Below, piece after piece: positions 4,037 to 37,654 of a stretch of DNA of 64,000 nt. The stretch's first letter is position 1. Each line of letters begins with the position of its first letter. A program made the position numbers and the translations under genes. Source of the stretch: Elusimicrobiota bacterium. Its GTDB lineage: Bacteria; Elusimicrobiota; Elusimicrobia; F11. The notes below the pieces were generated by a model that was given only the letters and a program-made list of their open reading frames with translations, was not told where the DNA came from and did no database searches. The DNA is taken from NCBI GenBank assembly GCA_046153645.1, contig JBJXGI010000056.1, forward strand, positions 1-64,000. Direction: 5' to 3'.

Positions 4037-7000
4037 GTGAAGGTGAAAAGATTCTACCGAAAGTCCATTTCTCTAGCCTTAACACTTGTTTATTTGTCTA
4101 CACAGGTGGTTTGGGCTGCCAAGGTGGAGACTGACTTTTGGGCCCAACGTCGCTCAAAAATTGAAACTCAAAATGAAGAGAAGAAGCCAGTTCAATTGGC
4201 GGCTCTCCCAAATTCATTCAACTCTCAATTTAATTCCAAAAATATTCTTAAAGAGCTTCCTGCGATTGGCCATAACTTAACTGTCACCCCGAAGTGGAGT
4301 AATTCCAAGCGCAATCAAAATAAAAATATTTCCCCAAAACTCCGCGATTTGGTTGATGCGGTTCCTCTCAATGTGGCCACCATACAAGAAGTATATTCTA
4401 CCTTTGAAACTCAACACAAAGAAGGAGTGGCTCTCATTCAAGATGTTCACATGAATATGGAAGCGCAGAAAAATATTGTTTCTGTGATCCAAGCGTTTGT
4501 TGATCAACAAAAAATATCCACCATTGGTGTGGAAGGCGCTTTTGAAAAGTTTGATTTCAAACCCTTTCGTGTTTATCCCAATTTGGATATCAGAAAGTCT
4601 ATTGCGGGAGATTTTCTTGTCAAAAATTTATTGGCTGCACCGTCTTATGTAGGAATAACCAGTGAAATAGAATTGCCCCAAATGATAGGAATAGACGACC
4701 CCGATCATTATTCAAAAAACGTAGAAGCCTTGCTCAATGCGCGTCAAACCAAGGAAAAAGCCACCAAAGAATTAGACCGAATTAAAAAAACATTAACTGA
4801 CGAAAAGAAAAAAGGGCTCTCAAAAGAACTGAATAATTTTGATCAGTTGCGAATTTCTTATCACAAGGGAAATGTGGGGTTGGGGGCTTATCTCAAGAGG
4901 TTAAAAGATTTTCCAACCTCAGCTAATCCGTCATCCCCGAATGTCTCTATCGGGGATCTCGATTTGACCACCGAACAATTTCTCGAAGCCTACCAAATGG
5001 AATCCAATCTTGATTTTAAGCGTGTAGAGAGTGAACGCACGATTGTCATCGAAAAACTCACGAAAACCTTAAGCGAAAAAGAAATAGCTGAGCTCATGCA
5101 GAAGAGTTTGGCCTATCGATTGGGAAAAATTGATTTCGGTATTTATTATCAAGACTTGAAAGATCTCTGTGAGAAAAAAGGCGTCCCTCTAAGACAGGCG
5201 CCTCATTTTGAGGACTACATTCGTTACGTTCTTTTGTCTGATGGCATTAAAGCTGACCGCTTATTTGAGAGCGTTAACCAGTTAGAAAAACAAATTGTCC
5301 GAAACTTAGCAAAATCCTCAAAAGAATTAGAGTTAATGAATATGAGTAACCATATTTCTTTAACTGAAAAGTTAATTGATTTTTCACTAACGCCGAATGA
5401 GTGGCTGGAATATAAAGGATTCCCCACCACGTTGTTCAGTGGGGGGGCGAGGGGGGGTATCCTCACACCTTTTGAAAAATTCTATGAAGAAGCCGATATT
5501 CGCAGTGCCAAAATGCTTGAGAATTTAAATTCCAAATCACAAAGTCCAAATAACAAACAATTTCCAAAATTTAAAAATAAAAATGAAATAAAAAATTTGA
5601 ATTTTGATGCTTGGGATTTGAAATTTCCAAAGCCAACGGTTTTGGTTGTTGGTGGCTTCCACACGCAAGAAATAAAAGAACTTCTTAAAAAACAAAAAAC
5701 CCCTTACGTGGTTATTTCTCCCAAACTTACGAAAATTGATGAGGGCTCAGGCAGCGCCTATCTTTCTGTTTTTTCGAGAGAAAAAACCCCTCTTGACCGT
5801 TTGTTTGCCGGGGAAAAGTTATTTTTAAATTCTGATCACTTGGCGTTAGGTACGGGGGCTCCCAAAACGTTACTTTCAGAAAAGTTAGCAGCGGCCGCGA
5901 TCAAAGTAATAAATACACAAGAACAAGAAACCGTTGAGGGGCCTAGCGGGTCTGAGTACCGCGTTGTGTTGGACCCTAATAAAAAAATTCGCGGTCTTCG
6001 TTTGGGAGAACAAGAGGAATTGGTTGTTCAGGAAACAAGGTTCTCCGCGCTCAAACGCGCTTCTATTTTTCGATATCCTGTGTTATTTCTAAAAAGTCTA
6101 ATCCAAATTCCTGCACGGATTATTAATGTGCTAAGTCATCCTCTCACTGCCCCCATCACAGAAACCCTTATGTTGTGGGCCGCGGTGTCTTATCTATCTG
6201 ACCCCACCGGTCTTTCCTCTATAGCAGCCTTTTTTATCATCCTCGTATTTTCCTTAATTCACGGGGACCTTTGGGATTTTGCTAATTATCAAAATCAAAA
6301 ATTTGAAGTTCCGGAGTTTTTGAGCCGGTTTTTTCAGCGATTCGTTGGCGGATTTTTACTCATACTTCCTTTTTTTCTCACATCAGGTTGGAATGCTGTC
6401 ATTTGGAGCGCCGGGGTTCACTTGTTTTGGAATGGGATTTATTATTTTAGAGAAGGAATCCTCCAAACAAAATTCGGTCAAATTGGGATTGTGGCGTGGG
6501 TATTGGAGAGGATGTTGCCATTGGCAATAGTAGACCGAAAAAAAGTGACTGAAGCACTGGCTATTTTTTTTAAAAATTATGCTCCTCACTCTCAAGAGTT
6601 TAGAATAAATCTTAATCCCTATTTCCAAATTCCTTGGGGAAGAAAGTTAACTCGAACAGAAATACAGCAAGGAATTGAATCCGGTGTCATTGTCTCTTCT
6701 ATTAAATTTCCTGGTGAATTAAGTTATAGGACCGATTCGTCAGACAAGGATATTCCTTTGCGAGGTTCTCAGTTACAAAAGGCTATCCCATTTAACGCCA
6801 AATCTGTTGATCAAGCATTTTTACTCGTCGATCAACTTCCTTTAAATTGGTTTGAACGGGTAACTGTGAATGTTAATTCGAATATTGGCGCAGGGCGAAA
6901 ACTTAAACGAGAAGAAATAATATGGGCAGTAAATCATGGGATCTTAGAGATGAATCCTAATAGAAACGGATTTTGCTACGTTAACTTTTTATCCGAAGCG

Positions 7001-36100: not shown

Positions 36101-37654
36101 ATCCAAACGGGCATTCAGCAAGACAATGTCAGACTTAACAGAGAGAACGTTATTCCAAAAGAAATAACGTTGGAGACTTATGTTGATTCTGAAAAATTAA
36201 AAAAAGCAGAACCGAAAAAACGTCCTGGTAAAGTTTCTGTAGAAATGTGGGCTTCATTACTTATTATAGGATCATTGACGGCGGGAGCCGTGTCTGGAAT
36301 CGTGCCAATGAAAGTGATTGTCATTATATTCTCATCTGTTATTGCATTAGCTGTCATTAAACTTTTTTACTTGGGGTCTCGGAGACTTATATTTGCTTTG
36401 ACAATCATGGGATTGTTTGGGTTTGGCGGATTGGCTTTTAGTCAACCACCAGAAGTTTTACGATTTCTCAAAGAAAATGTGACAAAAGACAAAATCGAAG
36501 AACCAGCAAAAGAACCTAAAATAAAAAAAGAAGTCCCTGAAAAACAAAAAAAAGCCAAAAAAGCAGCGGTGGTTCCCAAAGATACTCCTGTTCCTGTAAA
36601 AGATGAAGAAGTAAATGAACCACCGGTCAAAACAAATGATTGGTGGCCAGCCATTTATATAGGTATTGGGGCTGTGGTTCTTGGGCTTTTAATTCGAATA
36701 CTGACAAAACCCAAAAGTCTAAAATCAATATTGATTGCTTGGACGCTCTTGGGTTTTCCCGGCGTTGCCGCTGCGAGTACTGGGAGTTCTGTTGGTGTTT
36801 ATTCTATGTCAGGAAGTTGGCCTTTTCTTTCAATTATTATCGCAGGTGGCATTGTTTTAGGGTTGGTGCTATTGACTATTGTCAAAAATAGGCGCCAGAC
36901 TCCCGCGCAAAAGGTATCGAGAGGAATCCGAAATAAATATAAAGAGATAAATGCTGAAAACAAAACAGTTCAAAGAGTTCTTGAAGATATTCAAGCTAAG
37001 GAAAATACAGGCCCTTCTTTGGGTCTAAGACAAAATATTCAACTGGTTGGAGCCACTGAAACGGAACAAAAGTATTTTCTTATTGCATTGTGGTTCATGA
37101 TTAAAAACAGAATTGGAAAAATATTTGGATCTGTTTCCGAAGCCTTATCTGATACGTTTAAGGCAACCCATCAACAGATGGTTGTTGTTCATGTCAACAA
37201 TCAAAACGATCTTTCCAAACTTGATGAAGTCGTGTCTGCTGGATGGAGTTTTAAAAATGAAAATACATCGAATGTGATTGTCATTGGAGTTGTATTTGGG
37301 CCCGGTTTAAGTGAAGGGCTGAGAGATCAAGCAAAAGGGATAATAAGCAAAGCTCCCTTTGCTATTTCAATGGATGAATTAACTCCAGATAGTGAAAACA
37401 ATTCGGTTTCTTACAACCAAGTGTTTCGGGCTTTTGCAGATCTTTTTTCTGAGGGGTCAAAAGAACGTCAATTATTACTGGATCTTGTGATAGATCAGGT
37501 TCAAAATAAAAAAGTTGTGGTTTTGGGTGATTCACAGATCATTTACACCGCAAGCGATAAATTACTCTCTATTCTTATTAGTTTAATACCCGTTCAGGGC
37601 GGAATAATGATGATTGAGCTTCAAAGTGTTCTGGAAGCCGCTAAGAATGCTTAA
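33194..37654 (+). CDS. Large secreted/multi-pass membrane protein (1486 aa); N-terminal ~550 aa paralogous to 4037..9775
   Basis: Signal peptide (LFA-H); IQDVHLNDEAQQNI, LEGAF, GGFH, EKTPLDKLFSGEKLF shared motifs; several internal TM/signal-like segments. Confidence 0.85.
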   Translation: MKIMASFLAFVILFTHVLFAHSVETNLWTERQKSVRTQEEVKNTQLASLPAQFHSSSNVFNDLPSISKPLVSMERLMKDVPVGSENQYTSLIQSLLTPYGSIRKTTFPENQKQAKTIIHIQDVHLNDEAQQNIGKTLQSLIDQKKIDLVALEGAFGFMDFPAIRRFPFPDSTKAVADYLYKEKKISGAVYTAMTSVNEIPSFVGVDDVVHYNANVEAYKTSSLSYKGKKKQLEKMGLKINQQKNKVFNPELSRFDKEVQSYRQGKKDWGSYVQFLSEYQKDISTDVMIFLEALKQEVSLDFSKVESERVELLNQLVSTLSKNETTDLLGHSAAYKSGQIGHGDFYQYLKDLCHKKNVHLLNYKAMDAYIQYVLLSDGIQVDKILSEVASIEKSVYSSLAQTQEEEKIIQQEYALHLTQKLIDFSLTSEEWNDYSELKRSGIKFTSDNESESFSSFEKFYEEAKARDQVMSQNLIQEMDRLSAKVAVLVTGGFHSKGIDQELHKQGFTTITFTPKITKIEDDNGSSYLSVFSQEKTPLDKLFSGEKLFVTPKVMVDVPLAQLSQVLHHEASGTPSGQASRQGKSTKVTMVLDGFSKAILGITVTVGLGIFVAKYILTLSVPGYLQILIAAAVLLAFWNWRRPPPQSQSFSKGRRNFMLSGFALALFGSKTRAQDKKANPIRFGEAKPVDAKRQAYELSAAINKDRLKDFTDAEHVDIKVKPQLGLKDIRGLMVEFLGENNKVVFSGTVHKVQEKWLLYDGKEKLIEGIDIEVVEEKDGNIHFFFSQSKINPNKEEVSKVKINIGWRVGDIQIGLKTFTGTAVMSFLSNEELETFKKTLPKSLVREKIGPFGLDTVYGGGAETYFGRYALIPEKDIKNILNKNLDGNIFISMEFDDITKLNGFGFEIKTNLPGNKDIPVYKAKVLRDTKTGFFQGEPAAGVEIQVIGNRMILKIPTKIFNAGPNARADSFHIQTGIQQDNVRLNRENVIPKEITLETYVDSEKLKKAEPKKRPGKVSVEMWASLLIIGSLTAGAVSGIVPMKVIVIIFSSVIALAVIKLFYLGSRRLIFALTIMGLFGFGGLAFSQPPEVLRFLKENVTKDKIEEPAKEPKIKKEVPEKQKKAKKAAVVPKDTPVPVKDEEVNEPPVKTNDWWPAIYIGIGAVVLGLLIRILTKPKSLKSILIAWTLLGFPGVAAASTGSSVGVYSMSGSWPFLSIIIAGGIVLGLVLLTIVKNRRQTPAQKVSRGIRNKYKEINAENKTVQRVLEDIQAKENTGPSLGLRQNIQLVGATETEQKYFLIALWFMIKNRIGKIFGSVSEALSDTFKATHQQMVVVHVNNQNDLSKLDEVVSAGWSFKNENTSNVIVIGVVFGPGLSEGLRDQAKGIISKAPFAISMDELTPDSENNSVSYNQVFRAFADLFSEGSKERQLLLDLVIDQVQNKKVVVLGDSQIIYTASDKLLSILISLIPVQGGIMMIELQSVLEAAKNA

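Follow-up and report, generated by a model that had tools for sequence, protein, structure and literature searches.

A TIKI-like head, variable cargo and an alanine-ended tail in a large family of giant membrane proteins from an Elusimicrobiota genome

A stretch of DNA of 64,000 nucleotides from an Elusimicrobiota bacterium (assembly GCA_046153645.1, contig JBJXGI010000056.1, positions 1 to 64,000 of the forward strand; hereafter the window, our contig C18) contains two large open reading frames (ORFs), A and B, which are real paralogues in a very large family of modular giant membrane proteins. Members of this family share one layout, in which a signal-peptide-like N-terminus and a head of ~540 residues ending in a GEKLF motif are followed by alternating membrane and soluble modules, a C-terminal domain and a tail with a terminal alanine. 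The soluble modules differ between paralogues, the C-terminal domain is one of several unrelated types, and the tail is an amphipathic segment of ~16-20 residues. We tentatively favour a reading of A and B as modular precursors that are inserted in the membrane and whose constant ends, head and tail, act in a common maturation pathway, which would probably be proteolytic.

4037..9775, plus strand: ORF A, 1912 residues, GTG start, family member
33194..37654, plus strand: ORF B, 1486 residues, ATG start, family member
4037..4117, plus strand: signal-peptide-like N-terminus of A (residues 1-27) with a basic start, a hydrophobic core and ...VWA, as read from the sequence
4037..5827, plus strand: head of A (residues 1-597), TIKI/ChaN/EreA-like, with the fold inferred from the model of B's head
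33194..34837, plus strand: signal-peptide-like start and head of B (residues 1-548)

The products of A and B give a single significant BLASTP alignment, in which residues 15-642 of A match residues 8-579 of B with 222 of 633 positions identical (35%, E 2e-98); all remaining segments match at E ≥ 1.9. An initial annotation of this DNA had proposed a shared N-terminal region of ~550-600 residues, and the alignment bears this out. The ten motifs on which that proposal was built are all co-linear, in the A/B alignment as well as in an alignment of 37 paralogues. The similarity ends at GEKLF, which occupies residues 592-596 of A (nt 5810-5824) and 543-547 of B (nt 34820-34834), so that the proposed break points after this motif, at ~5826 and ~34834, are correct. 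The sequences RVVLVAA in A and EAAKNA in B are true C-termini.

The host genome comprises 2.63 Mb in 105 contigs and is rated 99.7% complete. A hidden Markov model (HMM) built from the first 600 residues of A extends the pair of paralogues recognised initially to 48 headed ORFs genome-wide, with the head always at the start of the ORF where the 5' end is present. These ORFs amount to 106,355 codons, or 12.1% of the genome, in which ORFs of at least 1000 residues together take up 23%. Contig ends cut 17 of the 48 (14 of them lack the 3' end and three the 5' end), and 37 carry a full head. Most headed members are 1,000-4,500 residues long. The cargo behind the head is rarely shared: a high-scoring segment pair at E < 1e-5 was found in only 18 of 666 pairs of full-headed paralogues, and in only two of the seven pairs whose heads are at least 50% identical.

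The head is widespread beyond this genome. A word-indexed search returned 69 proteins, the named ones from Elusimicrobia; the most distant of the 69, at 22-24% identity, belong to Omnitrophica (P0065, P0066 and P0069) and to 'Candidatus Auribacter'. A full profile search matched 9,800 representative clusters at E ≤ 0.001 and 6,568 at E ≤ 1e-30, and the match begins at or before residue 70 in 149 of the best 150 library representatives. Among 201 genomes sampled from the same phylum the head occurs in 62 (53 of the 171 high-quality ones), with an uneven distribution over taxonomic families: 38 of 63 genomes in one family and 0 of 58 in another. The longest headed open frame in this sample spans 11,603 residues. 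The presence of the head in the phylum and the profile matches in Omnitrophica uphold the suspected link to the giant genes of both phyla, Elusimicrobiota and Omnitrophota, which are still poorly understood.

A chimeric assembly, or an ORF finder running through decaying pseudogenes, might also yield long frames with a common start, and both the 17 headed ORFs that run off contig ends and a few visibly broken copies (one on C23 in three ORFs, and C80:20564 split from C80:24414) would fit such an origin. It can, however, hardly account for headed frames of 556-10,189 residues without stops, or for a head, tail and invariant residues conserved over 37 full copies and in 62 genomes. In addition, contigs of four public DNA runs from one biofilter study, runs that may be the window's own source, span the junction between head and cargo in A without any differing letter; among these, X1 record 3 covers 5327-5858 and X3 record 20 covers 5694-5974.

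The broken copies are due to frameshift or sequencing error. In C23:17662-20207 head and tail are split over three short ORFs, and C80:20564-28466 holds a headed ORF of 1291 residues followed by an overlapping ORF of 1350 residues that carries the alanine tail. Other giant ORFs have neither head nor alanine tail, among them C79:12501-38693 (8,730 residues), C37:2-19045 (6,347 residues) and C84:1525-13848 (4,107 residues); the genome therefore holds at least one further class of giant genes besides the headed family.

The alignment of 37 full heads contains 18 invariant columns. In B two of them, W28 and R31, closely follow the hydrophobic N-terminus; others are D122 and H124 (IQDVH), E152 (EGAF), R465 (RDxxM) and H493 (GGFH); the equivalents of the last five in A are D136, H138, E166, R489 and H542. 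At the D-x-H, E, R and H positions none of the 37 heads varies, against about 33% identity elsewhere. An AlphaFold (AF2) model of B's head has a mean predicted local distance difference test (pLDDT) score of 81.7 and a predicted template modelling (pTM) score of 0.74. It shows a helical insertion of ~270 residues at positions 208-480 and is weak at residues 36-69 and 518-551. The latter stretch holds the YLSVF...GEKLF motif, which is probably unstructured.

5759..5824, plus strand: YLSVFSxEKTPLDxLFxGEKLF motif at the end of A's head, the most conserved stretch
34769..34834, plus strand: YLSVF...GEKLF motif of B (residues 526-547), pLDDT < 50 in the model

In an exhaustive structural search with this model the top five of 48,161 chains are ChaN (2g5g, Z 9.5), HopBA1 (5t09, 8.7), EreC (6xcq, 8.2), BcR136 (2qgm, 8.2) and BcR135 (2rad, 7.9), followed by a chain of 8bqs (7.5), RRSP (5w6l, 6.8) and PMT (2ebf, 6.3). 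The RRSP structure paper places PMT, HopBA1, Bcr135 and ChaN together with RRSP in the TIKI superfamily and describes a 2His/2Glu catalytic set (E-x-H, E, H) as essential (PMC6254334). Weak Pfam matches to ChaN (PF04187) occur in 16 of the 37 heads and to PF05139 in one; searches of PDB sequences with the head gave nothing relevant. We conclude that the head is a probable hydrolase and a very divergent member of the TIKI/ChaN/erythromycin-esterase superfamily. To judge from its sequence, the hydrophobic N-terminus resembles a cleavable signal peptide, and the basic-hydrophobic-small-residue pattern of its first ~25 residues suggests that the head is exported.

A GC-rich hairpin repeat is translated in frame within A's head:

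4935..4957, plus strand: 23-nt repeat CCCCGA..TCGGGG

It sits in an insertion of the head that is missing from most paralogues, and the public contigs break there. The genome has 13 copies at no more than 3 mismatches, and a second family gene also contains one (C80:26596).

The initial annotation had described the cargo as punctuated by membrane helices. A Kyte-Doolittle hydropathy scan, the sole basis of our helix counts, agrees with this and places hydrophobic helix clusters at residues ~700-830 and 1480-1630 of A and at 593-635, 1019-1083 and 1153-1230 of B.

6143..6448, plus strand: CPBP/Rce1-like four-helix membrane module of A (residues 703-804), with ET at 709-710, FSLIH at 738-742 and HLFWN at 795-799
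8579..8932, plus strand: second membrane cluster of A, CPBP-like in motif order (IENG, FAALH, HMGVN), by motif only
34970..35098, plus strand: first hydrophobic pair of B (residues 593-635), from the Kyte-Doolittle scan
36248..36883, plus strand: two hydrophobic clusters of B (residues 1019-1083 and 1153-1230) around a linker rich in Lys, Glu and Pro

A local HMM seeded with residues 598-830 of A converged on a module of ~100 residues, corresponding to A 703-804, that is present in 23 copies in 16 proteins. Its consensus reads ET/EE...FxxxH...HxxxN; an alignment of 11 copies keeps the two His throughout and the Asn almost throughout. At motif 1, A has ET, without the Arg of EExxxR, and another paralogue has EEGFR. 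This order of motifs recalls the CPBP domain, described in a part of the myxosortase paper as TM4-TM7 (transmembrane helices) with EExxxR and HxxxN (PMC11980579).

The model of the module is a four-helix bundle (pLDDT 76.8). SpdC and Rce1 rank first and second among the 48,161 chains (6u0o_A, Z 7.4, root-mean-square deviation (rmsd) 3.4 over 105 aligned residues; 4cad_C, Z 7.0, rmsd 3.8, 108/121 aligned, 17% identity), and the third match falls to Z 5.7. We take SpdC to be a member of the CPBP/Abi family. In a hydrophobic context the three-part motif has 15 matches in 13 of the 48 family members, or 18.3 per 100,000 residues of family cargo, compared with four matches (0.5 per 100,000 residues) in all other ORFs. 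On the strength of this enrichment and of the structural match to SpdC and Rce1, part of A's transmembrane punctuation is predicted to be a CPBP/Rce1-like intramembrane-protease core.

A has two matches to the motif (666-799 and 1525-1630). B has none, and its helices look like plain anchors. We also considered the second membrane cluster of A as a CPBP-like module, and a profile comparison with the module gave a probability of 2.6%, which is not significant.

The C-termini are diverse up to their very end. The C-terminal pieces of 260 residues, 90 in number, fall into 73 BLAST clusters. An all-against-all profile comparison, restricted to the nine clusters with several members, links B's type to one other (95.4%) and A's type to another (95.0%). 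The profiles of the last ~250 residues of A and B match each other with a probability of only 0.07-0.1%, and because they do not match, the initial claim that the two cargoes are unrelated stands at the level of sequence and profile; the lack of any significant BLASTP segment pair between the cargoes agrees. A single conserved C-terminal domain was considered and is ruled out: iterative HMMs started from individual tails did not grow beyond small groups, and profile links exist between only some of the clusters. What the C-termini have in common is only the last ~16-20 residues.

9026..9772, plus strand: C-terminal domain of A, type A (residues 1664-1912), common to 11 other proteins
36923..37651, plus strand: C-terminal domain of B, type B (residues 1244-1486), common to P0037, P0044 and P0045, three proteins of other genomes, and found by profile in three paralogues within the genome
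9713..9772, plus strand: amphipathic tail of A, ...RVVLVAA; leave-one-out score 14.6, reached by 0.17% of the background
37592..37651, plus strand: tail of B, ...LEAAKNA; leave-one-out score 3.8, reached by 0.75% of the background

The conservation of this tail, suspected from A and B, extends to the paralogues. Alanine is the terminal residue in 30 of 32 complete members of at least 1000 residues, as against 167 of 2396 other ORFs (7%); the two exceptions include a split gene, the downstream half of which has the end ...DSQA. The last two residues of the complete members are AA in nine, NA in seven, HA in four and QA in four. Counted from the end, the tail follows the pattern L(-15), I/L(-11), A/L(-8), R/K(-7), A/I/V(-5), L/A(-4), A/N/Q/H(-2), A(-1). 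Scored with a leave-one-out profile of the last 20 residues, 22 of the 32 tails score as high as the best 1% of the 2,396 background C-termini, a level that 18 still reach without the last residue; the top-scoring 'background' tails are mostly 5'-truncated or fragmentary copies of the family. Relatives from other genomes end in Ala in 47 of 64 cases and further representatives in 65 of 108 (65 of the 95 with at least 1000 residues), and some of the non-Ala relatives are cut by contig ends.

Between head and tail, neither A nor B has a Pfam or NCBIfam family above threshold.

6524..8476, plus strand: soluble middle of A (residues 830-1480), no known family
35171..36238, plus strand: beta-rich middle of B (residues 660-1015)
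35141..35212, plus strand: internal segment of B resembling a twin-arginine signal peptide (residues 650-673)
36374-36454, plus strand: second internal signal-peptide-like segment of B (residues 1061-1087), like the first identified by inspection of the sequence

The middle of A has one relative among the fetched proteins, P0055. It contains an H-E-x-x-H motif, HEAQH at residues 1294-1298 (nt 7916-7930), matched by HEGQH in P0055; this may be a zincin-like site. The second half of B's middle recurs twice in the relatives P0044 and P0045. The middle of B yields weak leads to DOMON and glucodextranase-C only, and its protein-atlas scores are < 0.9, as are those of A 830-1480. The internal signal-like segments of B combine basic residues (in one of them a twin arginine followed by F-M-L), a hydrophobic core and a small-residue end, which hints that pieces of cargo are exported or cut separately.

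The cargo of the paralogues was scanned against Pfam as 40 pieces at E ≤ 1e-5, with one incomplete piece of 338 residues (C19:22624-23637) left out. Fourteen pieces have a match and 26 have none. The families found are AAA_5 (three proteins), VWA, SNF2/ResIII/Helicase_C, an AAA_12/AAA_30 helicase, an SdiA-regulated propeller, methyltransferases, sigma-70 regions 2/3/4 (three proteins), a metallophosphatase, HATPase_c and cNMP-binding domains. One Beta-prop_THOC3 match is weak and far under its cut-off, and a weak Peptidase_M50 match (E 6.3e-6, below cut-off) lies directly behind one head. By these assignments the identified domains are dependent on ATP, DNA or RNA polymerase and of cytoplasmic type, and they are not toxin families.

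The 2469-residue paralogue at C31:7194-14603 (locus L062) carries four CPBP-like modules spaced ~470-530 residues apart and multiple matches to sigma-70 regions 2 and 4. It looks like a repeated membrane-tethered sigma-like cassette.

We favour processing, tentatively, because the constant parts of the family resemble proteases or recognition signals, because a conserved and probably unstructured GEKLF motif follows directly behind a hydrolase-like domain, and because CPBP-like cores sit between cargo cassettes. The precursors would be inserted in the inner membrane with the head outside, and head and tail would act as common handles of one maturation pathway for all paralogues. This pathway would most likely be proteolysis of the membrane-inserted precursor by its own protease-like parts, namely the head on the outside and the intramembrane CPBP-like cores. 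A common recognition or turnover factor would then read the free ...x-Ala carboxyl terminus. The family, its architecture and folds, the invariant residues and the statistics of the tail are solid, whereas export of the head, topology, catalysis, cleavage and the reader of the tail are inferred.

A stronger form of this proposal, which we consider unlikely, is that the genes encode membrane-inserted self-cutting polyproteins. In such proteins an exported TIKI-fold hydrolase in front and CPBP-like, in some cases M50-like, intramembrane proteases between the cargo cassettes would split one product into a large number of enzymes and regulators, located on either side of the membrane, and the alanine tail would mark completion or turnover. 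If true, this would be a bacterial, membrane-based counterpart of viral polyprotein processing that takes up about one eighth of the genome.

Several observations weigh against proteolytic maturation. The first is a problem of compartments: the head is presumably outside and many cargo domains are of cytoplasmic type, and the head could therefore cut external loops only. Counts of Lys and Arg next to the last helix give a mixed picture of topology: 21 of 38 proteins lean towards a cytoplasmic C-terminus, with 5 ties. B leans that way clearly, and the eight Lys/Arg in the 20 residues that follow its last helix would put its C-terminal domain inside. The Z scores of head and module (7-9.5) fall in the range that the search tool flags as a possible common arrangement. 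As to the head, Foldseek returned nothing significant with its model, the best entries being of the erythromycin-esterase family at E 0.018 and above. Every Pfam match of the head lies below its curated cut-off (24.3 bits for B's head against 27.7 for PF04187). The first acidic position is Asp and not the Glu of the 2His/2Glu set, an equivalence judged by the order of residues, without superposition.

The membrane module is open to similar objections. Foldseek found nothing significant with its model, and three copies compared with Pfam matched neither CPBP nor any other family even at E ≤ 10. This module subtype is present in only six headed ORFs of the genome by HMM and in 13 of 48 by motif, B has none, and motif 1 of A is ET rather than EExxxR. 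The best structural relatives, moreover, include non-enzymes: ChaN, the best match of the head, is a haem-binding protein and not an enzyme (2g5g is titled 'Cofacial heme binding to ChaN'), and SpdC, the best match of the module, is presumably a non-catalytic scaffold.

The relation to ChaN and SpdC, together with the ET motif of A, would also fit static membrane-tethered multi-domain proteins. Here the head would bind a ligand or act in the envelope, the CPBP-like modules would be non-catalytic anchors or scaffolds, the chain would stay uncut, and the tail would form the last helix of a packing unit. Topology surveys (10.64898/2026.06.07.730766) likewise read the Omnitrophota giants as membrane proteins with a signal peptide and transmembrane helices. 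A static role is nevertheless rather unlikely in our view. The strict invariance of D-x-H, E, R and H in otherwise divergent heads goes beyond the usual need of a binding domain, the membrane module retains its two His and its Asn, and the nearly constant last residue would be left unexplained. If the static interpretation were true, the family would be a means of holding many enzymes and regulators at the membrane.

The cargo raises the further possibility of regulated-proteolysis switches, in which an outside cue would lead the head (site-1-like) and an intramembrane module (site-2-like) to cut the chain and release cytoplasmic modules such as sigma-factor domains, with the alanine tail as a degron of the ClpXP/FtsH type. 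In cleaved RseA, a ...VAA end acts as such a degron. Sigma-70 regions 2/3/4 in several copies in three paralogues, one of them with four repeat units of the CPBP-like module, would suit such switches, as would the HATPase_c or cNMP-binding domains of others, the weak M50 match behind one head, the AA end of nine of the 32 complete members (A itself ends ...VLVAA) and the charges that place B's C-terminal domain inside. We nonetheless regard switches as distinctly unlikely. Most cargo has no regulatory domain, with 26 of 40 pieces lacking any Pfam match; NA, QA, HA and SA ends occur as often as AA ends and may be unfit as ClpX tags; and a constitutive degron on 48 costly proteins would need a masking mechanism, of which there is no sign.

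The initial annotation had instead compared A and B with secreted polymorphic toxins. Under this interpretation head and tail would be a trafficking or processing device, and the middles would be effectors against prey or host, of a MARTX-like or CDI/Rhs-like kind. Constant ends with hypervariable middles, expansion to 12% of the genome and the occurrence of TIKI-fold domains in MARTX RRSP and in PMT would be compatible with effectors, and published suggestions (10.1101/2023.11.21.568195) tie the giant genes of Omnitrophota to predation. Searches against Pfam and NCBIfam, however, found no toxin, RTX or cysteine-protease-domain family in A or B, and NCBIfam gave no C-terminal sorting domain of the type IX secretion system (T9SS) at E ≤ 0.01. 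No immunity-like gene is common downstream of the paralogues among ORFs of at least 100 residues.

Exporters were also looked for. The genome has no C39 peptidase, and its best ABC match to the PrtD-type exporter model TIGR01842 scores 226.6 bits against a cut-off of 510, a weak control given that none of 14 control genomes passes it. It does have six TolC-like genes, partly beside RND-size pumps, and one S41 C-terminal protease (C71:65658). The many membrane helices and the Sec-type N-terminus would fit insertion and not release, and the identifiable cargo domains are housekeeping-like. We therefore consider secreted effectors improbable. What survives of the initial proposal is a family with a constant N-terminal module, unrelated cargo, punctuation by membrane helices and a conserved alanine-ended tail. 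The secreted-effector part is not borne out: with no toxin domain, recognisable immunity gene or dedicated exporter found, a conserved extreme C-terminus and cargo of cytoplasmic type, secretion is unproven and the sequences suggest that A and B are membrane-embedded.

The two genes lie in different surroundings, A between a MiaB-like gene and dnaG-rpoD and B between uvrB and nirB. Clustering of the ORFs of at least 100 residues within two genes of each family member gave one recurrent neighbour, an AAA_14-DUF4143 ATPase, which is found beside both.

10718..11827, plus strand: AAA_14-DUF4143 ATPase gene, 943 bp downstream of A, possibly associated
31857..33047, minus strand: AAA_14-DUF4143 ATPase gene, 147 bp upstream of B and divergent from it, possibly associated

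Six of the 19 such genes in the genome lie within 500 bp of a family gene, in any orientation (2.7% expected, P about 7e-6), and nine of the 19 within 5 kb (12.3% expected). Such adjacency could reflect a mobile element, a defence element or a common insertion hot spot. The ORFs downstream of A and B encode a weak PIN-like protein and an XRE-type helix-turn-helix (HTH) protein, respectively, neither of which is common to the paralogues. Directly downstream of B, at 37746-38853, this XRE-type HTH gene overlaps a DUF6036 nucleotidyltransferase-like gene in an arrangement that resembles a toxin-antitoxin pair.

Giant proteins with a signal peptide, transmembrane helices and mixed enzyme content are described for Omnitrophota in passages of 10.1101/2023.11.21.568195 and 10.64898/2026.06.07.730766. 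According to the former passages their enzyme Pfam domains include AAA_5 and HATPase_c, and their N-terminal regions 'generally lack identifiable domains' except C39 or S8 peptidases (10.1101/2023.11.21.568195). A part of PMC11573180 notes that Elusimicrobiota are enriched in huge proteins without functional assignment, as noted for Omnitrophota. The terms 'Tiki' and 'erythromycin esterase' are absent from the main texts of the two Omnitrophota papers, supplements being outside the search. With the same scope, full-text literature on Elusimicrobia/Elusimicrobiota with Tiki, erythromycin esterase, PrgY or CPBP yielded no published description of the family. The statistics of the alanine tail and the CPBP-like membrane module are new here.

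The family makes up a large share of the huge proteins without assigned function, with about 9,800 library clusters and with 48 genes that fill 12% of this genome. The enzyme-like head and its invariant catalytic-type residues, the protease-like membrane modules and the fixed last residue offer experimental handles on proteins that were formerly 'hypothetical'. If the chains are processed, gene content in Elusimicrobiota and Omnitrophota would have to be counted and interpreted differently; if they are uncut, they would represent an extreme tethering of cytoplasmic enzymes, helicases and sigma-factor domains to the membrane.

Among known systems, the TIKI/TraB-PrgY/ChaN/GumN/erythromycin-esterase superfamily offers the closest parallel to the head. 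The model of the head shares its alpha/beta core fold with a central parallel sheet (Z 9.5 to 6.3), and the conserved residues come in a similar order, with acid-x-His, Glu and a late G-x-His. Tiki and PrgY/TraB proteins have the layout signal peptide, TIKI domain and membrane helices, and the family has this layout in common with them. In contrast to these proteins, the head is about 540 residues long with a helical insertion of ~270 residues, has Asp for the first Glu, falls under every Pfam cut-off without a PDB sequence match, and is followed by 900-9,600 residues of other modules.

The membrane module resembles proteases of the CPBP/Rce1 type in its four-helix core and in the order of the Glu motif, FxxxH and HxxxN, and one CPBP enzyme, MrtX, can process a C-terminal sorting signal. 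Those proteases are free-standing proteins of 6-8 helices, whereas the core here is internal and repeated within a giant chain, and the family tail lacks the Cys-plus-helix sorting signal of the MYXO-CTERM kind.

Polymorphic toxin systems (CDI, Rhs and similar) vary at the C-terminal tip, with an immunity gene downstream. The family shares with CDI and Rhs proteins a constant N-terminal part and diversified remainders in many paralogues, but its C-terminal tip is not variable, and neither a toxin family nor an immunity gene accompanies it. MARTX toxins are alike in their conserved ends, the variable string of modules between them and, putatively, a built-in protease, and their effector RRSP has the TIKI fold. 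They differ in that the family has no detected RTX repeats or cysteine protease domain and no type I exporter was found in the genome; its members have a Sec-type N-terminal signal, many membrane helices and cargo that is not toxin-like. Type I secretion substrates carry no N-terminal signal and use a dedicated ABC exporter (often with a C39 domain), a membrane fusion protein and TolC. The N-termini of A and B, in contrast, are signal-like, and the genome has TolC-like genes and no C39 peptidase.

The giants of Omnitrophota (10.1101/2023.11.21.568195; 10.64898/2026.06.07.730766; PMC10066038) are similar in their signal-like start, very long ORFs, many helices and assorted enzyme domains, and the head profile matches Omnitrophica proteins at 22-24% identity. 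The members described here differ from them in being mostly 1,000-4,500 residues long and in forming a family of 48 within one genome.

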